Positions 4,304 through 43,707 of a DNA stretch of 55,697 bases are shown one piece after another. A program made the position numbers and the translations under genes. Numbering within the stretch: position 1 is the stretch's first letter; every line of letters begins with the position of its first letter. A model generated the notes under the pieces. That model searched no databases and was not told the DNA's origin. It worked only from the letters and a program-made list of their open reading frames with translations. The stretch lies in contig JAGGVH010000039.1 of the NCBI GenBank assembly GCA_021158105.1, forward strand, positions 1 through 55,697, in the 5' to 3' direction. This DNA is from Candidatus Micrarchaeota archaeon (GTDB lineage Archaea > Micrarchaeota > Micrarchaeia > Anstonellales > JAGGVH01).

Positions 4304-4622
4304 TTGCAGGAGGAGCAATGGCCTTTGCTGCAACTTCACCTGTCGGTTGTCCTACTCATCAGCTCAGGCCTGTGGCTTGGCGACACGCCGATACACAGCT
4401 TAGGGCTGCTCCTTTGCCGGCTCTGCTGGCAGATTTTGCATGTGTACCATGCAAAGCTTCCGGCCTGACCCGGTTCACTGTGCACGACGTCCGTCAAGGC
4501 AGACCGTCAACGCCTTTGAATAGGGCCAAACAGACAAAGCGCAACGCAGACCATCTTCGGCCCCGCCTAAAGGGGATTTGCGGGAATGGAGACCCCTGGC
4601 CCCCGGCCTATCCTCCTGCAAT
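4303..4622 (-). ncRNA. ffs: Archaeal SRP (7S) RNA with a 45-nt insertion in helix 8
   Basis: 12-bp terminal helix ATTGCAGGAGGA/TCCTCCTGCAAT; Alu-domain motifs TAGGCCGGGGG and GCGGGGCCGAAG; GTGAACCGGGTCAGGCCGGA...AGGAGCAGCCC helix 8; upstream TTTAAAAA box near 4642-4649. Confidence 0.92.
4414..4458 (-). other. Putative BHB-type intron in SRP RNA helix 8
   Basis: GCCG/CGGC 4-bp central helix, 3-nt bulges GAA and AAA, inner helix GCTTT/AGAGC; canonical cleavage positions give ...CAGGCCGGAAGGAGCAG... Confidence 0.7.
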
Positions 4623-4671
4623 ATAACTTTGCAATTTATCATTTTTAAACCTTATGGCTTTATGTTATCAT

Positions 4672-28406: not shown

Positions 28407-29726
28407 TTAGACCAATCCTGCACAGTTGACTGCACTCTGCCAATCGCCGAACATCTCAATTATACTGTCAACATCTACAAGGTTATACTCTGCAGTGTTT
28501 AACTTCCAATCATCTGGAGAGGGAACCTTGCCGATGATTTTCCGCATCATCCTCAACTGCTTAATGACTATTGCAGATTCTTTTGTGTTGGGATACTTTG
28601 CCACATCCATTAAAACATCAAACCCTGCTTCTACAAGAAAAAAGTCCCATTTTCCAAAATAATGATAAATCTTAGATGGTAGCGGGAGTGCAGGGTTGTT
28701 CTTTAATTCTTTGACCCAATCATTACGGTTGGGGATGTAACCGTTCTCACTGACAAAAGTTAGCAATGCACTAATCAGGTTCTGTTTTATTGTTTGGATT
28801 TTTTGTTCTTTATTCTTCATTCTTTTTAATTTCTCAATTTCTTTTTTTGTTTTAACCCCTGCAACTCTTTTAAGATTCTTCCAACTTCCAAACACCGCCT
28901 TCACCACCCGATAAGAAACATCTGTCTGTTCAACCCATAACTTAAAACTCTCATTAGTCTTCTCTAATAAATTATCTTCTAAGAATGACTCAAAACTTTC
29001 CAAGATAGTCTTCTCAAGTTTATACTTTACATAATGTAACAATTTATTGTATGACCCAAAAAGTTTTCTTATCAGCGATGGCGGAACAGAAACCATATTC
29101 TGTTGATAAAGTGAAAGCCAATGCCAATATGATGGAATAAAATGTTTATTATCAACAATACTCAAAAATTCAGTTGTTATTTGCTCCTTTAATTCATCAT
29201 CAGAAACCTTAGCTTTTGTTTGCAAATGACTAATAAAATCGTTCCAGTTTTTAAATATAACATAAATCCACTGCCTTGAAACTACATTATACTGCTTGTG
29301 AAACTTAATCCATTCTGGTGATGACGGGAAACGGTTGTTCAATTTATAGTATAACAATCCTTCCATAATAATCTTGTTTCTTATTACATTACGGTTGGCA
29401 TGAGCACCCTGGCGTTTTGGAGAATATCCTGCTAAACTCAATGCTTTGCGCCATGAACCTATTACTTTATATACTACATATAAAGAAGGCAGAGAATCAT
29501 TATATTTTCTTTCTTCATTCCAATCTATCCTGCGCGGTATATACCCCCTCTTCTTAACAAACGTTTGTATTGCCGAGATAATGTTCATTCTAACCTGCTT
29601 CTTAGAATGTTGTGAATAAGCAGAACTAACATTGTCAACCAATGGTTCTTGTTCTTGTAAAGAATGTGTATCGGTTGCATAGGTGTCGTGAACGGGCAAA
29701 TCTTGTCCACCAAACTTGACTTTCAT
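28407..29726 (-). CDS. Protein built of tandem 'homing endonuclease-associated repeat' (HNH_repeat-like) units, no nuclease domain seen
   Basis: About six repeats of the form [I/L]...F....G..P....W..........P....Y..FGSW...L..AG[YFLV]. Confidence 0.75.
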   Translation of the reverse strand: MKVKFGGQDLPVHDTYATDTHSLQEQEPLVDNVSSAYSQHSKKQVRMNIISAIQTFVKKRGYIPRRIDWNEERKYNDSLPSLYVVYKVIGSWRKALSLAGYSPKRQGAHANRNVIRNKIIMEGLLYYKLNNRFPSSPEWIKFHKQYNVVSRQWIYVIFKNWNDFISHLQTKAKVSDDELKEQITTEFLSIVDNKHFIPSYWHWLSLYQQNMVSVPPSLIRKLFGSYNKLLHYVKYKLEKTILESFESFLEDNLLEKTNESFKLWVEQTDVSYRVVKAVFGSWKNLKRVAGVKTKKEIEKLKRMKNKEQKIQTIKQNLISALLTFVSENGYIPNRNDWVKELKNNPALPLPSKIYHYFGKWDFFLVEAGFDVLMDVAKYPNTKESAIVIKQLRMMRKIIGKVPSPDDWKLNTAEYNLVDVDSIIEMFGDWQSAVNCAGLV

Positions 29727-29901
29727 GGATTTACTTTTATAAAGACATAAATATAAAGCTTTCTGTAAAATTTTTTAAACGTTCTAAAACTAATAATTAA
29801 CAGTAAAATATATATATGTGCATACATACAATTAATTAATAGTGTGGGCATATAAGAACATTTAAAAAGGTTAAATGTCCAGAAAAGTTAGGTGATGTGG
29901 T

Positions 29902-32900
29902 ATGACTCAGGGTGTTAAGTTAGCTGAAAACATAAGCGGGGTTGAAATTGCGAATATTATCAAATCAAAAAATAGTGAAATAGGAAATGTTAATAATCTT
30001 AACATATTCATCGACGCACTCATACAACGGATGACCAAGTTGCATGATGAGGCAAGAAAGCACAACGAAGAGGGGATATTCCCCGACATACCCAAAACTA
30101 ATGAAGGGTTTGCTGACATGTTTATTGAATCGTTCAATAAAGCAAAAAAGATTATTAACGACCCGTTAAACCACGAAGCATTAAAAAATCATATGGGAAG
30201 AGAATTGACTGACGAAGAAGTATTAAAACTTACAATATTCATTGCAGGAAACATTTTGTTGTATGGGGAGAACGGCATTGCAGCAGTCAAAGGCAGTTTT
30301 GGATTATTACCCAATGATAACACCTTCAATTCTGTCCTGTCAACTGTAAACCAAAGAATATCATTTTATTTTACAACAATCTATGACCTTAAAGAGGTAT
30401 GGGAAAATATTCAGGGCAAGCTTAAAAACTCTTTTGACCCGGTTGATGCAGTTGCATTATTAACATTAAAAACTGAAGAGAAAAAAAGAGAAAAGATTGA
30501 ATATGTTCCAAAGAAAATAACCGAGCATGAGGAAAAGGAAGTTTCACCCACTGTCAAACATAAAAAGCCGTCTGTCAAAGAAAAACCTAAAAAAGAAGAA
30601 ACAACTGAAACTAAAGCACCGATAAGCGAAGAGTTGGCAAACGAAACGATTGAACAGATGTACATTATTGAAAACTACCTGACACCTTCTCAGCTTGCCG
30701 ATTTAGGTTATCTCCAGAATACACAGGACTTAGTTAGGATTTATTCTGATACAGACTTAATATTTTCGCCCGGGATGATTGCAGGGTTTGAAAAGCAATT
30801 AGAAGAGAAAGGATTGTCGCCGCAAGGTGAAGGAGTATTCGGCAGGGTTGGACTGAACAAGTATCATCTTGAAGAAGCAATATTGTATGCAACAGGTTAT
30901 CTTGAAGAGTTGTGGGGCGTTCCAAACTTAGTATTATGGGAAAATGATGATGAGAGGAAAGCTTTACAGCAGTTGATAATTAACCTTGGGATTTATGATT
31001 ATATGAACGGTAAAGGTGAACTTAAAGAATTGTTTGACGGTGCAACAGGCGATGAACTTAGGAAGGTGTTCTCAAACGGTAGAATCAACATGGACGCACT
31101 CAATGATATAAACAAAAGAGTGTTGAACGCAGTGCCGGAACAACAACAGTTTGTGATGTTTATCGCAAACCAAATCTTCTCAGATGAAGAAAAGAACAGG
31201 ACAAGTGTAATAAGAGAATACAACCAGTTGACAGCCAATACTGATGCGATGGAAATACTAAACCTGTACCCAACAGGAAAAGATTTAGAACTTGTCTCGA
31301 GCGGCAGGCCTTTAATTTACAATAAAGATGAAAAACAAATTTATGCGTTGACTGAAGAGAGAAAAACATTGTTCAGTGAAAACGTTGAACGGCTTGCACA
31401 AGGTGAGATCACATGGCAACAGTTTGTTAATATGTATCAAAAATATTATGGTGCAAAGTCAGCAGCTAAGATGATGACAGAGTTAAACATAACATATTAC
31501 GGCAACACTCCTATAAACAAAGGTGGCCATGGTGAATATCCAACCATTGGCAGTGATATATTATTAAACTATACAAGCAAAGGCAACCCATACCTCCAAG
31601 GAACAAACATCATAAAAAAACACTGGAAAGAAGCAACAAAAGGATTAGGTGATAAGTGGGACGGCTCAGTCAGTATGATAGGAGAATGGATATTGCAAAA
31701 TGTTAAGTTAAATAAGGCTGACAGGACTGAACTTGAAAATGCAATAATATTTTATAAAGCAGTTGAAAAAGGCGAAATCAATAATTATACATGGAAAGAA
31801 CAAAAAATAAAAAGTTCGCCCATTGACGACTTGTATTATTCAGTATCAAACTACACAGAAAAATGGCAGGATATGTTTGACCAAGGCCTTTTCACATTTG
31901 CCGAGTCGCTGGGTTGGGTTAAGATAACAAAAGATAAAAATGGAAAATGGACAAAAGTCGAGATTAAAAAAGAAGAAGAACTTAATAAAGTGTTAACCGA
32001 CCCGACATACATGCTTTATTTATCATATGCATTTGAGGTATTAGGACAGAATGCTGCAGCTGCACTTCATAACAAATACGGGAAAGAATGGATTCAACGA
32101 TTGAAAACAAAACCTGGAAGGAATGAAATCATTAATTTCCTTGGTAAGAGGTATGGGGCAAACTGGGATGCAAAAAAACGAATCAATGGTTATATTAAGG
32201 GTTCTAAAAATCTTACCAGGTTTATGGATGACCTCAATAAAATATTAGAAAATAATAATATTGACCCATTAAACTGGGCTGAAGTCACAAATAAATTAAG
32301 GACTGATGAAAAACTCAGGAATGAATTAACTAACATTTTTGTCACATTCTTACAGGAAAAGGATTATGCAAGCTCATCATTAATGTTTCCATTATATTTC
32401 AGATTCTATGAATTTGGTTCAGACGGGAAACCTAAGAAAGATAAAAGTGGCAATTATGTTGTTAAAAGGGATGTTGTTGAGGAGGAAGTTATGAAGATAC
32501 TCGACCCCGCAATCACTGACGGGTTTAATCCCTTGATAACATTAGGTTTTCTGATAACTGGTAACACGTATGAAAATGATTACACTGAAAGTTTCCATTG
32601 GAAGAAAAAAAGGGAATATACAGTACACTTTGACCTGGCACCGAACGGTAAAATAATACCTGAAATAATCAATGTTGGCAAACAATTAGGATTTGATGGC
32701 AGGATGGATGTTGAAAAAGATGAAGATGTCATCGTTACAACAGGCAAAGGTCATCCATTGAAATGGAGAAATGTTACTGAAAGAGAACTGATTGCATCAA
32801 TGGATGAAGACACAACCATAACAGAAATACAAATAAAAGACAGGAAAAACAAAAAAAGTGTGATGGCAGACATTGACACTCAAACGTTGTTACAAGTAAC

Positions 32901-34764
32901 TGCACAGACAACCAAAATGAACAGTGCAGAAAACGGTACACAAACTATCAGGACGCCAGACGTCAAAGATGCAGAGGTCACACTCTATTTCTCAAAGGTC
33001 GAAAAAGATGGCACACTAACATTTATCAATGTCCCAATAAAAGGAAATCTAACAACTGACGAGCATGGCAGAAGCCATGTCACTTTTAACATTAATCAGA
33101 AGGATGAAAATGGTGATTTTATTTTTGAGGACGGTGCACAATATGTCATTTCAGGACGCACAGGAAGGGAAGACTTGGGAAGTTCGCACATTGAACACAT
33201 TGCAACGTTTAAAGTCGTTGGAGTGAACGAGATTACGCCAACAGTAAAAGGTGGTGTTGGTGGAGTACTAACAACATACATTCCTGAAACCCCCCTTATA
33301 GAAGGCCACATCTTTAACGGGTTAAATCCGACCATAGCTGCATTAGACCCTGTATGGGGGGATGGGGAATATATGTATAAAGCACTTGAAGCGTTAGGTG
33401 CAGATAAAGAAATAATTGATGCTAACACTACAAGATATTCATATGCTGGGGATGTTATTGAAATAGGATATGATGGAACAACATATAATGTTAACAGAAT
33501 AAGGCATGTTGATCAATGGTATGACATAGAAACAAATCCAGATCCTGGTGTTGTCGCAGGACCATTACTGTTAGCATTGAGTACAGGTCTTCTTAATAGT
33601 TACAGAAATGATGATAACCCTGCAGCACTTGACGCTTTTATAAGAACATTTGTAAATGATGATATGACTACAACAGAAATAGGTCAACATGTGTTCACTG
33701 TATGGAGTACTGATACTGGTGTAACTGATATTCCCGCCTTCAGAAATTCTATCATTGATTCAGCCAATAATGATGAAATTTATTACTATTTATTAAATGA
33801 AGATAATCCTGAGTTGTCTAGATGGGAAGGTGCTCCCCCACAGTTTATGAGATCTCTTGGAAATTCAGTAGGACTTTATCTTGAACATTCGACATTCAAA
33901 GGTGTTGCTGAAACCCGTGTAGCAAGAGTAAATAATGTGTTCTTTAGTTTACCTCTATTACAAAGCATACAAAGAGGAGGGTGGTTAGACATTGAAGCGG
34001 TTGTAGCACTTGATGTTGAAAGCGGTAGATTATACATCGTAGAAGCTGACACAGAATTACCTGAAGAATTAAGAGATAGAGGAGAATATGACATTTATCA
34101 CATACAGGGCTCACTTAGCGGAGAATTTAAAATAAGTGAAAGAATAGGTATGACAACCAGCATTCTAGCGGATGTGCCGGCACCTATAAGGAAACGTATG
34201 GGTTCTGAGAGAGCAAATATATATGGTTTCTTTAAAGAAGCAGTTGAAAGTACTCAAGGGAGTTCTGTTGGATTGCAACATATTGTTTCAGGAGTGTTAA
34301 ACAAAAACATAAAACCGTTTGTTGGAGCAGAAGTAGATTATGTACTCATAGGAGACAAAAAATATGGGGTTGTAGGTGTTGGTGGAGGTGCAGAATTGTA
34401 TCTCAATGATTTAAAACTTACATTATCTTACACAGAACATAGAGGTTTGAAAGGTTCTGAACCTTATGCTAATGTTGATATGCACAGTTTCATATTTACA
34501 ATAGACAAACCGGTTGATAAAGGTTTGGTAGATAACCTTAAGCTAAGAACAGAAGCAACATTTAGAGACACTTATAGAACTGGTAAGATGGGAGTAACTA
34601 TAGGTATGGGACCTGCTGAAGTTACTGCTGGAGCAACTGCAACCCAAAAAATGATAGGGGCAAGGGAAATTAAACCCGGGGTTTATGGAGGAGTTGAGGT
34701 TAGCTTAGACTGGATATGGAAAAGTATAATTTATCCGCCGCTTGATTGGATAGGAATATATTAA
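29902..34764 (+). CDS. Large (1620 aa) multidomain hypothetical protein; Ig-like segment and C-terminal amphipathic beta-strand domain
   Basis: Long uninterrupted ORF after an AGGTGATG RBS; no signal peptide; C-terminal part is similar to the 489-aa ORF at 36706. Confidence 0.85.
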   Translation: MTQGVKLAENISGVEIANIIKSKNSEIGNVNNLNIFIDALIQRMTKLHDEARKHNEEGIFPDIPKTNEGFADMFIESFNKAKKIINDPLNHEALKNHMGRELTDEEVLKLTIFIAGNILLYGENGIAAVKGSFGLLPNDNTFNSVLSTVNQRISFYFTTIYDLKEVWENIQGKLKNSFDPVDAVALLTLKTEEKKREKIEYVPKKITEHEEKEVSPTVKHKKPSVKEKPKKEETTETKAPISEELANETIEQMYIIENYLTPSQLADLGYLQNTQDLVRIYSDTDLIFSPGMIAGFEKQLEEKGLSPQGEGVFGRVGLNKYHLEEAILYATGYLEELWGVPNLVLWENDDERKALQQLIINLGIYDYMNGKGELKELFDGATGDELRKVFSNGRINMDALNDINKRVLNAVPEQQQFVMFIANQIFSDEEKNRTSVIREYNQLTANTDAMEILNLYPTGKDLELVSSGRPLIYNKDEKQIYALTEERKTLFSENVERLAQGEITWQQFVNMYQKYYGAKSAAKMMTELNITYYGNTPINKGGHGEYPTIGSDILLNYTSKGNPYLQGTNIIKKHWKEATKGLGDKWDGSVSMIGEWILQNVKLNKADRTELENAIIFYKAVEKGEINNYTWKEQKIKSSPIDDLYYSVSNYTEKWQDMFDQGLFTFAESLGWVKITKDKNGKWTKVEIKKEEELNKVLTDPTYMLYLSYAFEVLGQNAAAALHNKYGKEWIQRLKTKPGRNEIINFLGKRYGANWDAKKRINGYIKGSKNLTRFMDDLNKILENNNIDPLNWAEVTNKLRTDEKLRNELTNIFVTFLQEKDYASSSLMFPLYFRFYEFGSDGKPKKDKSGNYVVKRDVVEEEVMKILDPAITDGFNPLITLGFLITGNTYENDYTESFHWKKKREYTVHFDLAPNGKIIPEIINVGKQLGFDGRMDVEKDEDVIVTTGKGHPLKWRNVTERELIASMDEDTTITEIQIKDRKNKKSVMADIDTQTLLQVTAQTTKMNSAENGTQTIRTPDVKDAEVTLYFSKVEKDGTLTFINVPIKGNLTTDEHGRSHVTFNINQKDENGDFIFEDGAQYVISGRTGREDLGSSHIEHIATFKVVGVNEITPTVKGGVGGVLTTYIPETPLIEGHIFNGLNPTIAALDPVWGDGEYMYKALEALGADKEIIDANTTRYSYAGDVIEIGYDGTTYNVNRIRHVDQWYDIETNPDPGVVAGPLLLALSTGLLNSYRNDDNPAALDAFIRTFVNDDMTTTEIGQHVFTVWSTDTGVTDIPAFRNSIIDSANNDEIYYYLLNEDNPELSRWEGAPPQFMRSLGNSVGLYLEHSTFKGVAETRVARVNNVFFSLPLLQSIQRGGWLDIEAVVALDVESGRLYIVEADTELPEELRDRGEYDIYHIQGSLSGEFKISERIGMTTSILADVPAPIRKRMGSERANIYGFFKEAVESTQGSSVGLQHIVSGVLNKNIKPFVGAEVDYVLIGDKKYGVVGVGGGAELYLNDLKLTLSYTEHRGLKGSEPYANVDMHSFIFTIDKPVDKGLVDNLKLRTEATFRDTYRTGKMGVTIGMGPAEVTAGATATQKMIGAREIKPGVYGGVEVSLDWIWKSIIYPPLDWIGIY

Positions 34765-34776
34765 TGGAGGGATATT

Positions 34777-36690
34777 ATGAAAAAAGAAATTATAATCATG
34801 ACTTTGATGATTACATTGGTCAGTTGTGATTCGATCGACCGAACTTTTTCAAACGCAGAATTTAGAGGATGTGCACCTCACAACTCAGATAAATTTAACG
34901 CTAATCTTTATGTAACATTTGGTAATGAACTGACAGCATCACAAATAATTAATCCTAGCACTCTTGAAATTTCTGCAGGTAGTTTAGATGATGGGGATTA
35001 TATTTGCCCTGGACAGATTAGACAACAACTTACAAATGAAAGATCAGAGTATGATTTTGTGGGCAAGGGGTATGGATCATATTTTTTAAGCTGTTTAGAT
35101 TTTCCTCTACAAAGCGGTCCGACACCTGGTAATTATAGTTATGAAAATTCAGCTAATTTAAATAAAGAATATGACGGTGGACTTTATTGTAATCCTGAAG
35201 ATCCTTGCAGTGACGTTGAAGTAGGTTACCAAACTGTGTGCAGCGGTGCACCTATGCACGCTCAACCTTTTGTATTAACAGCATATAATGGTTTCTCAGA
35301 AGAATCAGTAGGCTACACAACGATAGTAATGGCCGGACAGCTAACAAGGGGCGATAACGGAAACGTGTATAATACTGAACTTTCAAACGTGATGGACAGC
35401 ACTTTTTCGATCGTTGATTGGTCAGCTCCTTCAGAATTAGGGGACCATAACCTTAACATATACATTGAAAAAATTATTTTTGAAGCTGCAGCATACTATG
35501 AATGCAATAGTTGTCCAGCACCACCATGTGAAAAAGAACTTCAATATTTTAATTATCAACCTGACCAAAACATTGAACTGTTTTCAGGGGAGGTTCACGT
35601 TGTTAACCTGATAGCAAACGGGTCCATAGTAAACATTCAGGCCAATGGAAATCCAATCGATCCAACATCAGGCATCCCGGTCAACCCTGACGGAACACCA
35701 ACACATATTACTATTACTGTCAGCAATGACGGAGCAAGCAATACTGAACAAAACCTTGCCATGCCAATAACTGTAGAAAACGTTGTTGTAACATCTAACC
35801 CATCAGATTGTTTTATATTTACCCCAACAACACCATTGCCTTCATCGGCTATACCTGTCGGAGATACTATAAACATAGAAGGGGATTTATCTGCAAATCC
35901 CACTCCTACACATAATTGCAATGATGCAAACATCTCATTCAATATTAGTTATGAAGGCATAAGTGAGGATTGTAATGGTGCGACACCTGAGGGTAACGAT
36001 GTGTGGACGTATAACAGAAGCAAAGCACCAGACTACACATGTTCAATCAATGACGTGGTTGGTAATTATGGAGATCCAATAACAATCAACATTACAACAT
36101 CAAACATAGGCGGAGGACCAGGAGGTAACCCTTCAAATACATATATTAGAATACTACCATCAGGATATGAAGAACCATTTAACATACCATCACTGAACGC
36201 AGTGCAAAGTATATCCAATTATAGGATGATAACATGCAACTATTCCACTCCTCAAACTATATATGGATATGCAGACGTTAACGACAACATTTCCGAGAGT
36301 GATGAAAACAATAATCAATGCAACGCAACAATCACATGCACAAGTTATCCTGATTATGTTGCAAAATGCACTGGCGGAACAGGATACTTAGGAGATGTTG
36401 TTCAGTATACTGTTGAAACAAAAAATGTAGGGCAACCTGCCACTAACCATTCAATAACTAACGTTAGTATTGAAGGATTCATAATTAACCAATATCCCGT
36501 CCCAGGATTAAACACGAATGACATTGCACAAGAATCATTTAACTTCACATGTATGATAGCAGGACAATATAATATAACACCTTATGCAGATGCATTATTC
36601 AATATAAGCGAATTAGATGAAACGAACAATTATGAACATTCGTGTATTATAAATTGTTTATCAAACTACACATGTATAGATTACGTTTAA
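34777..36690 (+). CDS. Cys-rich secreted protein / putative lipoprotein with two CARDB-like domains
   Basis: MKKEIIIMTLMITLVSC signal with LVSC lipobox; ADVNDNISESDENNN and ADALFNISELDETNN CARDB signatures; GGAGG RBS. Confidence 0.8.
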   Translation: MKKEIIIMTLMITLVSCDSIDRTFSNAEFRGCAPHNSDKFNANLYVTFGNELTASQIINPSTLEISAGSLDDGDYICPGQIRQQLTNERSEYDFVGKGYGSYFLSCLDFPLQSGPTPGNYSYENSANLNKEYDGGLYCNPEDPCSDVEVGYQTVCSGAPMHAQPFVLTAYNGFSEESVGYTTIVMAGQLTRGDNGNVYNTELSNVMDSTFSIVDWSAPSELGDHNLNIYIEKIIFEAAAYYECNSCPAPPCEKELQYFNYQPDQNIELFSGEVHVVNLIANGSIVNIQANGNPIDPTSGIPVNPDGTPTHITITVSNDGASNTEQNLAMPITVENVVVTSNPSDCFIFTPTTPLPSSAIPVGDTINIEGDLSANPTPTHNCNDANISFNISYEGISEDCNGATPEGNDVWTYNRSKAPDYTCSINDVVGNYGDPITINITTSNIGGGPGGNPSNTYIRILPSGYEEPFNIPSLNAVQSISNYRMITCNYSTPQTIYGYADVNDNISESDENNNQCNATITCTSYPDYVAKCTGGTGYLGDVVQYTVETKNVGQPATNHSITNVSIEGFIINQYPVPGLNTNDIAQESFNFTCMIAGQYNITPYADALFNISELDETNNYEHSCIINCLSNYTCIDYV

Positions 36691-36705
36691 ACAAAAGGTG
36701 ATATA

Positions 36706-38175
36706 ATGCCTTATTATGGAAGACAGAACAAAACTGTTCCAAAACCTGTAGGTGAAAAAGGACCTGGCAAAATGCCCATGTATGACATGCCTTACGGTGC
36801 AACAAATACTATTGAAATGTTAAAATTGGCAAAAGGCACACTAATTTTCTGGAACATTACCTCGCCAAATTCATTAGAAAGCGTAAGAAAGATTGCAGAA
36901 AGACATAACCTTCCATTTGAAATATTTACTGAAGGAACTGATATAGTTGGTTTTAGGATGGAAATTAACGGTACTGAATATAACATCTCATTTACTGAAC
37001 CAAATCCTTCAGAAATTTTAGATAACTTTAGTTTATCATTAATAAATTTAGTATTTGAGAATAAAGATGTTGAAGATATGAGAACTTTATTTTACCTTCC
37101 AACAGGTGAACTTAACTCATTAGGAATAGAAATTGTTCAACATTTAGCTTCGCATTACAGTACAGACCAACCCACTGCTCAGGGAATGATAGATAACATG
37201 CTATCACAGTTAGAAGCTGGACAATGGAGAAGGGAAACATTTGACCCGGTGTTTAGGCCATTCTTTGCATCATCAGATTACCTAACAACTGAGAATTATA
37301 ATGTTAACATCCAATCAAAACCTTATCAGATTCACCAATTTCATATATCAGGAATGTTATACAAAAAAATGACAACTGGCAGGGACTTTGGTGTGCAGGC
37401 AATCGAAACAGGGTTATACATTGACAAGAAGAATGGTGTTGCATACTTGGTTGACAAAGAGGACGAACTACCTGACGAAATCAAGAAGGCATTAGATGAC
37501 AATCCGCAAGATATTGATGTTTACCATTACAAACCATACTTTGACCTGTTATGGTGGCAATGTGTATATTCAGGAAGGTTAAGGATTTATGGTGACATTG
37601 TAAACGCAAGTTCTAAACCATCAGGTGAAATCCAGGAGCAAACCTCTCCATATATGGTAGTAAACAAAGTAAGAACTATGTTCAAAACACCGCCAAAGAC
37701 ATGGTACTTTGGAATCCAACACGTGTTCACATACGGCCCGTCACCTTGGCAGCCGGGCAAGAGTTATCAGTTGGACATGGGCGGCGAACTGGGATATGCA
37801 AAATATTCAGAAGACAAAAAATGGATAGTGATCGGGGTCCACGGCGGAGGGTCATTATACCTTAATGCATTGACACTCAGTGGCAGTGTGACTAGACATT
37901 TTACAATAGGCAATACAAAAGGTATGATGGACAGTAATGTGACATCTTTAGGGTTCTCTTTAGGCACGAAAATAAACAACAAATCATTAAATAGGGTTAT
38001 AGGCGACACCAGCATTAAAATATACGAGACTCATAATGAACTTATAACCAGTATCGGTGCACAGCTCTGGAGCAATTACTTGGTAAAAGGCGGGGTTACT
38101 TATGAACACTGGAAACATGGTGAAAAACCTGCACAGGGTTTAGGACTTAAGATGAGTTTAACTGTTTCATTCTAA
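36706..38175 (+). CDS. Hypothetical protein with predicted C-terminal beta-barrel-like domain ending in Phe
   Basis: AGGTGA RBS; alternating polar/non-polar strands, final strand QGLGLKMSLTVSF*; paralog of the 1620-aa protein's C-terminus. Confidence 0.8.
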   Translation: MPYYGRQNKTVPKPVGEKGPGKMPMYDMPYGATNTIEMLKLAKGTLIFWNITSPNSLESVRKIAERHNLPFEIFTEGTDIVGFRMEINGTEYNISFTEPNPSEILDNFSLSLINLVFENKDVEDMRTLFYLPTGELNSLGIEIVQHLASHYSTDQPTAQGMIDNMLSQLEAGQWRRETFDPVFRPFFASSDYLTTENYNVNIQSKPYQIHQFHISGMLYKKMTTGRDFGVQAIETGLYIDKKNGVAYLVDKEDELPDEIKKALDDNPQDIDVYHYKPYFDLLWWQCVYSGRLRIYGDIVNASSKPSGEIQEQTSPYMVVNKVRTMFKTPPKTWYFGIQHVFTYGPSPWQPGKSYQLDMGGELGYAKYSEDKKWIVIGVHGGGSLYLNALTLSGSVTRHFTIGNTKGMMDSNVTSLGFSLGTKINNKSLNRVIGDTSIKIYETHNELITSIGAQLWSNYLVKGGVTYEHWKHGEKPAQGLGLKMSLTVSF

Positions 38176-38206
38176 CCTTTATCATCTATTTAGAACATAT
38201 ATATTC

Positions 38207-38257
38207 GCATTTTAAAATGTAAAAATGATGTAAAAATTGCATTTTAAAATACAATAT
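38207..38257 (+). repeat. 51-bp direct repeat, copy 1
   Basis: GCATTTTAAAATGTAAAAATGATGTAAAAATTGCATTTTAAAATACAATAT; touches the ATPase stop codon. Confidence 0.95.
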
Positions 38258-39534
38258 TATGGCAAAAGATAAAGGTATAATGGAATTTTAGGAACGCCAA
38301 CATATTCAACTTTATTAGTATCAGAAATTATCATTTTGTTTTTACCTGTAAGTTGTTTCATATCTTTTGACCTGCCCCCAACTTCAACTGAAATCTTTTT
38401 TCTTTTGTTTGATATTATAAAATCACTCTCTCTTCCTCTATTTGGCACATACCATATATCAAATCCTGAATAAACTGTGTTGGACACTACAGCTTCTTCT
38501 CTTATCATACCTATGTTCGGTTCTTCACCAAGGTGGTCAAGAATTGATAATCTCAAAGAAGGAGAAGAAAAATAATACTTTGGCATCTTTCTAAGTCCGC
38601 TGCGGCCGCCTGATTTTACTTCAATGAGAAGAGACGATTTCACCATCCCATCTATAATCGCACTCACAGCAGTTCTTGATACTCCAATATCCCTTGAAAT
38701 ACTGTTAACACTTGTCTTTGCATCCTTTGCCATTGCAATTGAATAAAGAATATCTTTTGCTTTATTCAATGTTTCAGAATCAAAAGAGGATATATATCTT
38801 AAATCATCAGTAATTATACGGTCAACAACATCAAACAGTATACTGTACCTTAAATGCTCTGCCCGATTAAACACAACTGGAAGACCGTGATATTTTAAAT
38901 AGTTCCATAATTCACTATGAGCCGAGTCCGGAGCTCTAAATTCTTCTCTAATGATATTTTCATACATGTTTGGACTGAATAATGCTTTTTTGACATCAGT
39001 TTTAACATCATACCCTTTTATCATTAAATATTCACCATATTGTACAGGACAAAGATGCATATAAACTGCTCTTCTTTTCAGTATTCCTTTTTCTCTCAAT
39101 CGCAATGCCGACGAGCCGCTTATTATCAAAAAAATATCCTTATTTTTATCAAAAACATTCTTAACCTCTTCAGCCCATCTCTTATGGATATGGGCTTCAT
39201 CAAGAACTACGACATATGGTGGTTTAACTATTCTTTTATATGCGTTAACAACATCTGAAAGTGATAAGTCATAGAATTCTTTTACATCAGCAAATATAAA
39301 CAACGGGTGAATGTCTACTTTTGAAAGAAACTGGCAGATTGCAGTTGTTTTACCAACGCCTCTTAATCCCCATACAACAATTAATCTATCTTCATTATTA
39401 CCTGATATAAATGATTTGTAAACTTTATCTATTTTATTAACTATCTTCCTTTCATACTGTACCCCTTCAGTATATATTTTTATGATTTTGGGAGTTTCAA
39501 TTAAACATTCTTGAACCCATTCCAGCAATTCCAT
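38257..39534 (-). CDS. AAA_14 ATPase with wHTH and DUF4143 (PD-(D/E)xK-like) domain, COG1373 type
   Basis: Walker A GLRGVGKT, Walker B VVLDEAH, SGSS, KMPKYYF.SP.LR, ESDFII...VEVG motifs. Confidence 0.88.
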   Translation of the reverse strand: MELLEWVQECLIETPKIIKIYTEGVQYERKIVNKIDKVYKSFISGNNEDRLIVVWGLRGVGKTTAICQFLSKVDIHPLFIFADVKEFYDLSLSDVVNAYKRIVKPPYVVVLDEAHIHKRWAEEVKNVFDKNKDIFLIISGSSALRLREKGILKRRAVYMHLCPVQYGEYLMIKGYDVKTDVKKALFSPNMYENIIREEFRAPDSAHSELWNYLKYHGLPVVFNRAEHLRYSILFDVVDRIITDDLRYISSFDSETLNKAKDILYSIAMAKDAKTSVNSISRDIGVSRTAVSAIIDGMVKSSLLIEVKSGGRSGLRKMPKYYFSSPSLRLSILDHLGEEPNIGMIREEAVVSNTVYSGFDIWYVPNRGRESDFIISNKRKKISVEVGGRSKDMKQLTGKNKMIISDTNKVEYVGVPKIPLYLYLLP

Positions 39535-39568
39535 AATAATATATGTATAGTAAACTTTTTATATGTTT

Positions 39569-39619
39569 GCATTTCAAAATGTAAAAATGATGTAAAAATT
39601 GCATTTTAAAATACAATAT
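39569..39619 (+). repeat. 51-bp direct repeat, copy 2
   Basis: GCATTTCAAAATGTAAAAATGATGTAAAAATTGCATTTTAAAATACAATAT; one mismatch to copy 1; just upstream of the ATPase TATA box. Confidence 0.95.
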
Positions 39620-39687: not shown

Positions 39688-40923
39688 CTATTCGTATCTC
39701 AATGCATCAACAGGATTAAACTTTGACGCTTTCCACGCAGGTGATATCCCTGCCACAACACCAATAAGAAGCGAAAATATGAACGCACCTACTGCCAGCC
39801 ATGGTGTCATTATAGCTTCAACACCCAGATTAAACATCACTGAAACATAATTAAACCCATAAATTAAAAGAAAGCTTAAAACTAAACCTATCAACCCGCC
39901 CAGTCCGCACAACATTGCACTTTCAGTTAAAAATAACATAAGAATCTGGTGATTTTTTGCACCTAACGCTTTCATTATACCAATCTCTTTAGTCCGTTCA
40001 AGAACTGCAGTGAACATCGTATTTGAAACGCCAACTGCACTGACTAATAATGAAATGCCTGCAATTGTCCCTAAGAAAATAGTGATTACTCCTAAAATTG
40101 TATTAATCTGTTCCATGATATATTCAGAAGTCATCACAGTAAAGTCATCCTCTTTAACTTTATGTGCAGAACGCAGTTCAAACTCAATCCTGTCTGCAAC
40201 ATCTTCCGGATCAAACCCGTCAGCCACCCTAACATAAACTGCACTGATCTCGTTTTTGCCCATCAACCCTAAATCATCAACAATGTCACGTGCTGTACTG
40301 TAAGGTATTGCAATCATCTGGTCATCACCACTGCTACCTGACATTCCGCCAATCTTTTTCATTATGCCGACAACCCGATATTTTTTATCATTTATATAGA
40401 TATAAGAATTGACATTTATTGGCTTATCAAAAACATTATATGCAAAATCATGACCTATGAGTACTACATTCTTTTCATTGTCCTTAAAAATTCTACCCTT
40501 TGCAGGAGAATATTGTGGCATGATTCCTGAAGTAAACAGGTTTGATTCCATGCCAGCAGGGGCCATATAAATCTCTTCACCTTTATACCTTATTTTACAC
40601 TTTGGAACGATTAGCATCCTTGATGTGAACACAATTCCGGGAATTCTCTGTATCCTGTCAACATCTGATTCATAAAGTTTACCTTGTTGCGGCCTATACT
40701 GCGCACCCATACCTATCATACTCTTTAAACTTCCAGGCAGGATTATAATATTCTGTGGTCCAAACTCTTCCAATTGCTTAGTAACAGTATGTTTTAACCC
40801 GTCGCCTAAACTTATCATTACAACTATTGCAATCACGCCGACGATGATGCCCAACAACGTCAGCCATGATCTTAAACTCCTATGCTTAATATTGATAGGT
40901 ATGAGCATCAGGTAATCCATCAT
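39688..40923 (-). CDS. ABC transporter permease (MacB/FtsX family)
   Basis: RSWLTLLGIIVGV, GVSNTMFTAVLERTKEIGIMKALGA, PAWKASKFNPVDALRYE motifs. Confidence 0.95.
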   Translation of the reverse strand: MMDYLMLIPINIKHRSLRSWLTLLGIIVGVIAIVVMISLGDGLKHTVTKQLEEFGPQNIIILPGSLKSMIGMGAQYRPQQGKLYESDVDRIQRIPGIVFTSRMLIVPKCKIRYKGEEIYMAPAGMESNLFTSGIMPQYSPAKGRIFKDNEKNVVLIGHDFAYNVFDKPINVNSYIYINDKKYRVVGIMKKIGGMSGSSGDDQMIAIPYSTARDIVDDLGLMGKNEISAVYVRVADGFDPEDVADRIEFELRSAHKVKEDDFTVMTSEYIMEQINTILGVITIFLGTIAGISLLVSAVGVSNTMFTAVLERTKEIGIMKALGAKNHQILMLFLTESAMLCGLGGLIGLVLSFLLIYGFNYVSVMFNLGVEAIMTPWLAVGAFIFSLLIGVVAGISPAWKASKFNPVDALRYE

Positions 40924-42461
40924 TGCTTGCTCACCTTTTTATTCTTGAAAAACACAAAATATGCAACCATGCCTACCAAACCTATCACTATAAAAACAAC
41001 ACAGATAAATGATTGGTTGCCCACAATCGCATCAGTAAAAGATGATTCGGATTCATAAACATTAATGTTCTTTGTCACTTCAACCTGGTGAGGCGTGTTC
41101 GCCATGTCAAGATAACTTATTGTAAATTTGAGAGGATACTGACCTGACGCAACTCTACCAACTTTAATCTTATACTGTACAGTACTGAAATCGTCTGCGT
41201 CAAGAGAACCTATAAACTGTTCACTTTCAGGATCTAAAACATTAAACACATCATTTGAATGAACCATAACCTTCAAAGCCTTAACATCACTCACGCCAAC
41301 ATTAGTAGCCTGAACAGAGAATGTGTGCACCTTGCCTGACTCGACAGGCAATGGACTGGTAGTAACATATACATTAATCGCAGGTGGTGATGAAATATAA
41401 ACACCAACATTACTCGTTTCAGGAGTCATCTCCTTATTATTTTCATCATTGTAAGATATTGTTATTGGGATTGTGTAATATCCTAAGTCAACGTCCTTGG
41501 TCGCAACAGAAATTCTAACTGTCTTAATCTCACCGGGCTGTAATGCTCCAATGCTCACTGCTGACTCAGACAACGGTATCAGCACTGTATTATCACTAAA
41601 GGATAATGTTACATCCTTTGCAAGATGTTCACCATTATTTTTTATACTAAAATAAAGTTCATTTTTTGTATTGGGCAAGAGTTTAGAATCATTCATCAGG
41701 ATTAAGAAGTTTGGACGACGTTCCTTGATAAGAACAGGAAGATTAAACAATGTAGTTTCACTTTCCCCTAATGAATTAGTATAGGTTAAATACAACGGAA
41801 ACTCTGTCCTTCCCGAAGCCGCATCGTCACTTACTGAAAGAACAACATTAACAGTTTTAGTTCCTGACAAGTCGCCAATATAATAATTTGATTGGCCACT
41901 AAGTTTAACATAAGTACCATTAACTATCAAATAAGCATCATTAACCTTCTCGCCATTGTTGACAAACGTCATATTAACAGAAATCTCACTACCAGTCTCA
42001 AACACTGTGGGCTCAACCTGTGCAGAGATAGTTACAGGCTTCTTAACAGTTATTGGTATGTTGACCCATCTACTGATGTACCTCTCTTCATCCTTTTCAT
42101 TGCTGGATAACAATTCTTCCCCTGAAAGATGAAGATATAACGTATAAACTCCACTTGACAGGTTATTATCAATCTGGAACGGTATGTTTACAATTGTGGA
42201 CGCACCAGATTTCAACCTTCCGACTGACACCGACTGGTCGGTCTTTATGCGTGATGACCCTTGTGAATATAATGACAATGAAACAGTATCACTGCCAACA
42301 TTGGTCAAAGTCACCTCAGCCATTCCGTTACTGCCCGGCGGAAGTTCTGATGACGGCAAAATCTGATAACTGACTGTAACATCTGCCCATGCCACCCCCA
42401 ACAAAAATATTATTCCAAACGTCCAGATTAACAATTTATTATTTTCCATCATACTTATCAC
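40920..42461 (-). CDS. COG1361-type S-layer-domain / Ig-like surface protein
   Basis: Signal peptide, repeated Ig-like units (N.G...A.DV, IG.L.PGE, Y...I.Y), C-terminal TM; usual partner of archaeal MacB-type ABC systems. Confidence 0.85.
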   Translation of the reverse strand: MISMMENNKLLIWTFGIIFLLGVAWADVTVSYQILPSSELPPGSNGMAEVTLTNVGSDTVSLSLYSQGSSRIKTDQSVSVGRLKSGASTIVNIPFQIDNNLSSGVYTLYLHLSGEELLSSNEKDEERYISRWVNIPITVKKPVTISAQVEPTVFETGSEISVNMTFVNNGEKVNDAYLIVNGTYVKLSGQSNYYIGDLSGTKTVNVVLSVSDDAASGRTEFPLYLTYTNSLGESETTLFNLPVLIKERRPNFLILMNDSKLLPNTKNELYFSIKNNGEHLAKDVTLSFSDNTVLIPLSESAVSIGALQPGEIKTVRISVATKDVDLGYYTIPITISYNDENNKEMTPETSNVGVYISSPPAINVYVTTSPLPVESGKVHTFSVQATNVGVSDVKALKVMVHSNDVFNVLDPESEQFIGSLDADDFSTVQYKIKVGRVASGQYPLKFTISYLDMANTPHQVEVTKNINVYESESSFTDAIVGNQSFICVVFIVIGLVGMVAYFVFFKNKKVSKQ

Positions 42462-42462
42462 C

Positions 42463-43185
42463 TCACTTTTTCATTTCAATTTTTTCAATCATACCATCCC
42501 TGATATGTATAACCTTATTAACATATTTCCTTTTTGAAACATTAACATCATGTGTTATAATCACGACAGTTTTCCCATTATCATGAATCTCTTTTAGGAT
42601 ATCATAAACCTCTTCGCCACTCTTTGAATCCAAATTGCCTGTCGGTTCATCCGCAAGGATAAGATTTGGATCATTGACAAGTGCACGTGCAACAGAAACA
42701 CGTTGTTGCTGTCCTCCTGAAAGTTCACTTGGCAGATTATACAACTTATCAGAAAGGCCCAACCTGTTCAGAAGCTGCCTTGCCTTTCTAAGCCTGACAT
42801 CATAAGGCACATCATAAAACATCATTGGAAGCATAACGTTCTGGAGTGCATTGAGCGACTGGACAAGATTAAAGGATTGAAAAACAAAACCGATGTCTTT
42901 AAACCTTATATTAGCCAACTGGTCATATGTATATAAGGAAGTATTCTTCCCACGAAAATAAACTTTTCCCTCTGTTGGAGTATCGAGCAGTCCTAAGATA
43001 TGAAGTAAAGTAGATTTGCCACTGCCACTCGGACCCAGAATCACCACAAAATCGTTCTTATTGATGCTGAAATTTATTTTTTTCAATGCATAAAAATCAA
43101 TCTCGCCCATGACATATTTTTTATATACATTTTCCAATCTTATTATCTCTTCAGTTTTAGTTCTTCCAGTCTTTTTTGGTTTCAT
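42463..43185 (-). CDS. ABC transporter ATP-binding protein (LolD/MacB-like)
   Basis: [41 protein letters not shown] motifs. Confidence 0.96.
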
Positions 43186-43196
43186 ATTATTATCAC

Positions 43197-43535
43197 CTAT
43201 CTAACTAGATATCTTAAGAAAGACCTAACAGATGATGGGATACGTTTCTTAAAATCTTTAAGGTATTTTCTTCCTTTTGGAGTTAACGTATATTCTTTTC
43301 TTTTTCTCTTACCAACATATTTTACTTTTGACTTTATTAAATTCCTCCTTTCCAATGATTTCAAAAAAGGATATATCCGCGACGGTTGCATTTTATGGTT
43401 TGCAGGAACAATACTTTCAAATAATTTATATCCATGCATTTTATTATTTCTAAGTTCCCATAATATCCTAACCTCTGCCAGACCACGAAATATTTTTCCC
43501 ATTTGTTTTTGAGTAGTTGTTTTTCCTTTCTTCAT
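43197..43535 (-). CDS. PadR-family transcriptional regulator
   Basis: ILWEL...MHGYKL, IYPFL..LE...LI, RKRKEYTLTPKG motifs; heads the ABC operon. Confidence 0.88.
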   Translation of the reverse strand: MKKGKTTTQKQMGKIFRGLAEVRILWELRNNKMHGYKLFESIVPANHKMQPSRIYPFLKSLERRNLIKSKVKYVGKRKRKEYTLTPKGRKYLKDFKKRIPSSVRSFLRYLVR

Positions 43536-43707
43536 AAGGATATTTACACACGCAAAGTTTATATATCTATCTTTTAATATATCATAATTGTGATATATCA
43601 AATTTATAACACAACATCAAAAAATAATCAAAAATCTAAATTTTTATCTCAAAAAACTCTGCGAAACCTTTATTAATGTATTCTTTGTTATTTTGACTGG
43701 TGATTAA

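Follow-up and report, generated by a model that had tools for sequence, protein, structure and literature searches.

We describe a three-gene operon on contig JAGGVH010000039.1 of a Candidatus Micrarchaeota archaeon, a stretch of 55,697 nucleotides (hereafter, the window) that constitutes contig C14 of a 0.96-Mb genome that is 89% complete. The operon comprises gene 1 (29902-34764; product P0001, 1620 amino acids), gene 2 (34777-36690; P0002, 637 amino acids) and gene 3 (36706-38175; P0003, 489 amino acids), all three read from the + strand; 12 nt separate genes 1 and 2, and 15 nt separate genes 2 and 3. Gene 1 encodes a large protein devoid of cysteine, gene 2 an exported protein with CARDB domains, and gene 3 a stand-alone paralog of the gene 1 tail. 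Genes 1 and 2 remain adjacent in every genome in which the family was found and diverge in step, much further than the genes around them, and we tentatively interpret them as a lineage-specific, co-evolving pair that would act in the cell envelope or in contact with a host.

Organization of the locus

A preliminary description of this DNA had noted three co-oriented open reading frames (ORFs), separated by 12-15 nt and each provided with a ribosome-binding site. The coordinates given above confirm this layout, as do the Shine-Dalgarno-like sites AGGTGAT, GGAGGGA and AGGTGA, which lie 5-7 nt 5′ of the ATG codons of genes 1, 2 and 3, respectively (that of gene 1 at 29890-29896). An N-terminal extension of gene 1 can be excluded because an in-frame TGA lies 9 nt upstream of its ATG. 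The AT-rich intergenic region that precedes gene 1 (29727-29901, + strand) contains, around positions 29806-29820, an A/T-rich, TATA-like run that may constitute the promoter of the operon.

The operon is flanked on one side by a divergent ribosomal operon (rpl3-rpl4-rpl2) and on the other by a convergent operon encoding a PadR regulator, an ABC ATPase, a further CARDB protein and a MacB/FtsX protein. An origin of the operon in a provirus or mobile element was considered and ruled out, given a G+C content equal to that of its surroundings, a position fixed in four genomes and the lack of viral matches.

The large protein and its stand-alone paralog

P0001 has a mass of ~180 kDa and an isoelectric point (pI) of 5.15, with neither a signal peptide nor a transmembrane (TM) helix. 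None of its 1620 residues is a cysteine (P = 2.6e-4 at the window background frequency of 0.51%), and lysine plus arginine account for 11.4% and aspartate plus glutamate for 14.6% of its composition, with a density of N-glycosylation sequons of 7.4 per 1000. Neither P0001 nor P0003 matches any family in Pfam, PHROGs or NCBIfam, any PADLOC model or any PDB sequence, and a search of P0001 for nuclease, ATPase and protease motifs identified no conserved catalytic motif.

Comparison with two full-length orthologs and structure prediction with AlphaFold2 (AF2), run on a 6-row alignment that was the only one obtainable, divide the large protein into several parts. Residues 1-860 (29902-32481) can be aligned end to end with both orthologs and harbor the most conserved stretches of the protein, with a peak of 57% identity at residues 301-420 and the conserved motifs YDY.NGK...KEL.D, WDG, KWQD.F..G and FPLYFRF. 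They are followed by a predicted immunoglobulin (Ig)-like beta-sandwich at residues ~932-1112 (32695-33237), modeled with a predicted local distance difference test (pLDDT) score of 70-87, for which sub-threshold Big_3/Big_7 matches occur at the same place in the orthologs and the best Foldseek matches are Ig-like folds, none of them significant. An alpha/beta region at residues ~1152-1292 was modeled at pLDDT 70-81. The protein concludes with a beta-rich, glycine-rich C-terminal domain (residues 1340-1620; 33919-34761) that contains ~8 long amphipathic strands and the conserved motifs TELPEEL, G.Q and GGGAELYLN, and that ends in ...DWIGIY. Partly overlapping this domain, residues 1204-1590 (33511-34671) form the module that recurs as gene 3. 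According to per-window identity this module is the fastest-diverging part of P0001, with 13-28% identity between species; the same range applies to the C-terminal ~480 residues, the least conserved portion of the large protein.

The product of gene 3, likewise devoid of a signal peptide and with ...GLGLKMSLTVSF as its C-terminus, is in essence a copy of approximately the last 400 residues of gene 1 preceded by 88 N-terminal residues of its own. BLASTP aligns residues 1364-1539 of P0001 with residues 233-424 of P0003 at 23% identity (E 2e-8). When a profile of P0003 and its ortholog P0004 is compared with a profile of the four large-protein orthologs, hhalign extends the match to residues 89-478 of P0003 (36970-38139) against residues 1204-1590 of P0001, with a probability of 99% and an E-value of 5.8e-18 over 350 columns. 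The homology is far beyond chance. Gene 3 and the resident gene 1 module are 20-23% identical. Every block of similarity quoted in the preliminary description falls within the BLASTP alignment, and the homologous region proves longer than had been claimed there. A further extension of the paralogy into residues 31-100 of P0003 was also considered, and was rejected as not significant (z = 0.9).

Elsewhere in the genome, a second large cysteine-free ORF of at least 980 amino acids runs off the start of its contig (G000:C11:2-2944, locus L029) and has no Pfam matches. Its last ~400 residues also consist of glycine- and aromatic-rich amphipathic strands, ending in ...EYSVWLYLSTTF, and it is followed by GatD/GatE-like genes. 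No relationship between this ORF and the C-terminal domain of P0001 or P0003 was detected with hhalign (probability 0.2%). The genome also encodes ~10 other proteins of 1000-1900 amino acids with clear N-terminal signals, on contigs C1, C8, C17, C24 and C46. Several of these are extremely cysteine-rich (up to 91 cysteines), and five are clustered on C46.

The exported CARDB protein

The composition of P0002 is that of an exported surface protein. It has a pI of 4.05, only 2.8% lysine plus arginine, and 23.5 N-glycosylation sequons per 1000 residues versus a background of 5.3, and it begins with a hydrophobic Sec signal (MKKEIIIMTLMITLVSC; 34777-34827); its three orthologs (P0007, P0009 and P0011) have hydrophobic N-terminal signals as well. 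It contains 22 cysteines, compared to 19-24 in the orthologs, and no C-terminal TM anchor. The CARDB family (PF07705) matches P0002 in two stretches with 53.6 bits, well above the Pfam gathering score of 22.7; the best-scoring stretch spans residues 537-619 (36385-36633) and the second lies upstream of it. Among the orthologs, P0009 scores 39 bits and P0011 falls just under the cut-off with 21.4 bits. The C-terminus carries the motif NYTCIDYV (36664-36687), which is kept as NYTCID[YF][VI] at the same end of all four gene 2 orthologs and is unique in the genome.

The view of the middle gene as exported, cysteine-rich and CARDB-bearing is therefore borne out by its signal sequence, its 22 cysteines and its PF07705 score. 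Its additional designation as a lipoprotein is not established, because the lipobox-like LVSC (sought as [LVI][ASTVI][GAS]C where the signal peptide ends) is confined to P0002: the corresponding segment reads LILC in P0011 (...LILC-VNA), the cysteine of P0009 falls within the hydrophobic core, and P0007 has no cysteine there.

Distribution, synteny and divergence

When each of the three operon products was compared by word index with 5.8 billion proteins, the search returned only P0004, the ortholog of P0003, and a match to gene 2 limited to the CARDB domain. P0004 is 56% identical to P0003 and is encoded on a 9.9-kb Logan contig (L003) that carries the same three genes among the same neighbors. 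The sole return of a phmmer search with the C-terminal domain against 1.84 billion representatives was a repeat-protein false positive, and scans of metagenome and viral contigs for the family returned nothing. Six-frame searches of 401 genomes from the class, every one of the order's 176 and 401 from the phylum located the large gene only in G349 (P0008, 1626 amino acids) and G432 (P0010, 1675 amino acids), the two further species of this genus, where it is followed by cysteine-rich CARDB genes (encoding P0009 and P0011, respectively) and by no third gene. This genus is the only one of its GTDB family among the genomes surveyed, and the region upstream of rpl3 in nine genomes from six other families contains no positional analog. 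Weak matches in three further genomes (G143, G333 and G080; E ~1e-3 per genome) were dismissed as chance, reflecting a short ELPEELK-like motif in an unrelated protein of 246 amino acids. Judging from these searches, the operon family is an orphan restricted to a single genus. The DPANN/Micrarchaeota origin proposed in the preliminary description agrees with the deposition of a genus-mate metagenome-assembled genome as 'Candidatus Micrarchaeota archaeon'.

In all four genomes with the family (the window, L003, G349 and G432), genes 1 and 2 are adjacent and sit between the rpl3 operon and the PadR-ABC-CARDB-FtsX operon. Gene 3 is present only in the window and L003, and is missing in G349 and G432, two of the operon's three relatives. 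The linkage of the three genes in relatives, whose absence had been named as a refutation of the original proposal, holds in every relative for genes 1 and 2 and in only one of them for gene 3. Since genes 1 and 2 are linked everywhere and gene 3 occurs in just two genomes, we regard genes 1 and 2 as a conserved pair and gene 3 as a duplication in one sub-lineage.

Expressed as identity to the window's copy, the large protein is conserved at 27% in G349, 31% in G432 and 43% in L003, and the gene 2 product at 27%, 29% and 41%, respectively. The corresponding values are 69-75% (G349) and 67-75% (G432) for ribosomal proteins L2, L3 and L4, for which the L003 locus gives no value, and 47-69% (G349), 54-63% (G432) and 69-80% (L003) for the FtsX, ABC and second CARDB proteins of the flanking operon. 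Genes 1 and 2 therefore diverge in step and roughly 2.5-fold more than the housekeeping genes beside them, whereas gene 3, at 56% identity between the window and L003, is better conserved than genes 1 and 2 (41-43%) in the same comparison.

The C-terminal domain and the proposed beta-barrel

The preliminary description had interpreted the shared C-terminal domain as a transmembrane beta-barrel, forming a pore or conduit in an archaeal outer lipid layer or in the membrane of a host, and the CARDB protein as an adhesin. Several features of the domain point in this direction. Its last ~160-280 residues contain ~8 long strands (10-16 residues) connected by turns of mostly 2-5 residues, and in each of the six homologs one side of the strands is hydrophobic throughout. 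The four members scored contain 8.5-14% glycine and 10-12% aromatic residues, compared with 13-16% and 13-17% in the bacterial outer-membrane proteins (OMPs) OmpA, OmpX and OmpW. Both this composition and the amphipathic-strand score, which is similar to that of the same three OMPs, set the domain apart from the Ig-like and CARDB sandwiches that the operon also encodes. The last residue is phenylalanine or tyrosine in five of the six proteins, with P0003 and P0004 ending in a strictly alternating strand (...LKMSLTVSF), and the large protein is free of cysteine, as autotransporter passengers usually are.

Most of the remaining evidence nevertheless weighs against a membrane barrel, and the amphipathic-strand score was itself rejected as a discriminator because 10% of the ORFs of this genome yield values in the same OMP-like range. 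No member of the family has a signal peptide (0/6) or a TM helix; in P0001, P0003, P0004, P0008 and P0010 the N-terminus lacks a hydrophobic segment, and no window of 19 residues exceeds a Kyte-Doolittle (KD) value of 1.5. No family member matches an OMP family (Pfam, E<=1; NCBIfam, E<=0.1). The Omp85/BamA-like insertase that had been proposed as a check was not found in the 89%-complete genome (PF01103, E<=1), in a search for which controls were positive, and no OMP_b-brl gene was found in the genome either. Some details of the strand pattern also fit a barrel less well: the aromatic residue of P0010 is internal, being followed by a 21-residue tail of lysine, arginine and glutamate; in the large proteins a 17-residue insert containing Pro-Pro precedes the terminal aromatic in place of a clean last strand; and two tight turns in succession (A-B and B-C) interrupt the alternation of long loops and short turns. 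AF2 assigns pLDDT ~25 to residues 1389-1620 of P0001 (6-row alignment) and 39 to a single-sequence model of P0003, and Foldseek searches against PDB and BFVD return no barrel, all matches being non-significant. The comparison of the domain with Escherichia coli OmpA, OmpX and OmpW by hhalign had no power, because as single sequences these true OMPs scored below 3% against each other.

The premise that Micrarchaeota possess two membranes has also been revised. The outer layer of the cultivated Micrarchaeota A_DKE and ARM-1 is an S-layer rather than an outer membrane (10.1101/2021.04.28.441871; PMC11329633), and Gfrerer et al., who demonstrated the S-layer on Ca. Micrarchaeum harzensis, state that two membranes had been a hypothesis (10.1101/2021.04.28.441871). 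The operon resembles bacterial OMPs and autotransporters (PF13505, PF03797) in the size of the C-terminal domain, in its amphipathic, glycine- and aromatic-rich strands, in its mostly aromatic last residue and in the large cysteine-free N-terminal 'passenger' of gene 1, but differs from them in having no signal peptide, family match, BAM (beta-barrel assembly machinery) insertase or documented outer membrane, in the displaced aromatic residue of one ortholog, and in that no barrel is predicted with confidence. A transmembrane beta-barrel reading of the domain is consequently not supported, and a pore or conduit of the kind originally proposed appears improbable. Still less probable, in our assessment, is a variant in which the domain would be a membrane-inserting beta-barrel or beta-pore that dispenses with both Sec signal and BAM and enters the host membrane from outside, in the manner of mitochondrial barrels or beta-pore-forming toxins; the large protein would then be the scaffold that bears the conduit, the gene 3 product would supply a second barrel subunit, and adhesion would fall to the CARDB protein. 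If true, such a BAM-free, Sec-free pore would represent a new kind of archaeal host-contact pore. The case otherwise illustrates that OMP-like strand patterns and a terminal phenylalanine are insufficient to call a membrane barrel in archaea.

An envelope or host-contact pair and its alternatives

While the pore or conduit is not supported, the broader envelope or host-contact role suggested in the preliminary description remains the most plausible one, and we adopt it tentatively for genes 1 and 2. The conserved core of the system would be the gene pair itself. The CARDB protein would be displayed outside the membrane, and the almost cysteine-free large protein (~1620-1675 amino acids), with its long N-terminal half, Ig-like beta-sandwich, alpha/beta region and beta-rich, glycine-rich C-terminal domain, would use its variable C-terminal module to bind this protein or the envelope, so that the two products would make up a complex acting in the cell envelope or in host contact. 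A duplication in one sub-lineage turned the last ~400 residues of gene 1 into the free-standing gene 3, whose product probably co-assembles with the C-terminal module or substitutes for it.

Whereas the anatomy of the operon, its paralogy, distribution and synteny and the divergence rates are observed, the location of the large protein, the interaction of the two products and their function are what we infer from several lines of evidence. The operon structure and the adjacency of genes 1 and 2 in all four genomes agree with such a pair. The fast divergence of genes 1 and 2 in lock-step is a signature of proteins that contact each other, face outward, or both. The export features of P0002 and the Ig-like sandwich of the large protein point to the cell surface, and the duplication involved the part of the large protein that varies most. 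In mass, pI and lack of cysteine the large protein also fits general traits given for S-layer or envelope proteins (10.1101/2021.04.28.441871), and the genome has no recognizable S-layer family (TIGR01567, TIGR01564) that would account for its envelope. Strain-specific secreted CARDB proteins of Micrarchaeon Mia14 have been proposed to serve at the surface layer and in contacts between cells (PMC5498576). Gene 2 is similar in that its product, likewise from a Micrarchaeote, is Sec-exported, specific to its lineage and equipped with CARDB modules, but it lacks their PKD or beta-propeller domains and has a novel N-terminal half with ~20 cysteines, the NYTCID[YF][VI] C-terminus and a giant signal-less partner.

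Several observations weigh against this interpretation. In every ortholog, the large protein and, where present, the gene 3 product are without a Sec, Tat or class III signal and without a TM segment, while the other large surface proteins of this genome bear clear signal peptides. The charge and sequon density of the large protein are cytoplasm-like, unlike those of gene 2. The synteny is confined to one genus and could reflect shared descent rather than function, and neither sequence nor structure searches (Pfam, PHROGs, NCBIfam, PADLOC and PDB; Foldseek against PDB and BFVD) provide a homolog that could serve as a functional anchor.

The missing export signal and the cytoplasm-like charge and sequon profile make a cytoplasmic role for the large protein and the gene 3 product a serious rival, albeit one that we consider unlikely on balance. 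These proteins might then, for instance, act as a scaffold, build a large assembly inside the cell or belong to a rapidly evolving type of conflict or defense protein, sharing an operon with the CARDB protein but forming no extracellular complex with it. Defense and conflict genes, too, typically diverge fast and have a restricted taxonomic distribution, and the locus tolerates insertions, as seen in an AAA_14/DUF4143 cassette (a PADLOC PDC-S01 candidate) and an HNH-repeat gene that are both absent from relatives. Cells of ARM-1 contain large protein cages and filament stacks of unassigned composition (PMC11329633). Against a cytoplasmic role stand the fixed position of the operon in all four genomes, which contrasts with the variability of defense islands; the want of any PADLOC model above noise or of a nuclease, ATPase or protease motif; and the parallel divergence of genes 1 and 2, together with gaps of a size compatible with translational coupling, which argues for a shared function. 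Ig-like sandwiches in prokaryotes, moreover, are mostly extracellular.

Genes 1 and 2 could also be the S-layer of this lineage, analogous to SlaA/SlaB, with a cysteine-free acidic lattice protein and a smaller exported, membrane-proximal anchor. The mass, pI and lack of sulfur-containing cysteine of P0001 fit the traits listed for S-layer and envelope proteins (10.1101/2021.04.28.441871), and the known S-layer families TIGR01567 and TIGR01564 are absent from the genome. As in Sulfolobales slaA/slaB, a large acidic, cysteine-poor protein and a smaller exported partner share one operon and drift extremely fast between relatives. The candidate lattice protein, however, has neither the signal peptide of SlaA nor any enrichment in sequons, its partner lacks the C-terminal TM anchor of SlaB, no operon protein matches an S-layer family in NCBIfam, and none of the order's other families has the gene pair. 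Several of the other large signal-bearing proteins of the genome are candidate surface proteins and better S-layer candidates than P0001. We deem this identification very improbable. Least credible of all is a layout akin to that of the Rhs/CdiA polymorphic toxins, in which a large delivered protein would carry a variable C-terminal effector module and gene 3 would be an orphan alternative module. The operon does share with such loci a large protein, a hypervariable C-terminal module (here the last ~480 residues) and a diverged stand-alone copy of part of it downstream. Yet no toxin, trafficking or pre-toxin domain was identified with Pfam, NCBIfam or PADLOC, and the intervening gene encodes a large exported, adhesin-like CARDB protein of 637 amino acids instead of a small immunity protein. 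Gene 3, in turn, is furnished with a separate start codon and ribosome-binding site, begins with 88 residues found in it alone, exceeds its neighbors in conservation, and shares no recombination tract with the resident module, as its low identity to it makes clear.

Should the envelope or host-contact interpretation of genes 1 and 2 be correct, a giant cysteine-free protein, exported without a recognized signal, would be paired with a co-evolving cysteine-rich adhesin. How DPANN archaea attach to their hosts and exchange material with them is poorly understood, and the operon would then be a candidate determinant of partner specificity in one genus of Micrarchaeota. As an orphan family of uncultured organisms, the locus is of value as a target for structure prediction with more sequences and, given a culture or enrichment, for proteomics.

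Neighboring genes and insertions

Between rpl3 and gene 1, the window encodes a 439-amino-acid HNH_repeat protein (PF18780, E 8e-20; 28407-29726, minus strand) of a type associated with homing endonucleases. At the corresponding site G349 and G432 have just 570 and 318 bp, respectively, and the gene therefore represents a second lineage-specific insertion at the locus. The other is found beyond gene 3, where an AAA_14/DUF4143 ATPase gene (38257-39534, minus strand; region 38198-39619) lies between two 60-nt direct repeats with 95% identity, spaced 1362 nt apart. Its product matches the PADLOC candidate defense family PDC-S01 (E 5e-27), and the gene is missing from the same site in L003, G349 and G432. 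It looks like a recent insertion of a single gene.

The PadR-ABC ATPase-CARDB-MacB/FtsX operon (39688-43601, minus strand) adjoins the orphan operon in all four genomes, with two tandem FtsX genes in G349 and G432 and one in the window and L003. Elsewhere in the window, a signal recognition particle (SRP) RNA is encoded at 4315-4619 on the minus strand (Rfam clan CL00003; best model Bacteria_large_SRP, 72.5 bits), and a 102-amino-acid ORF at 4318-4626 is probably spurious because the SRP RNA occupies the opposite strand.

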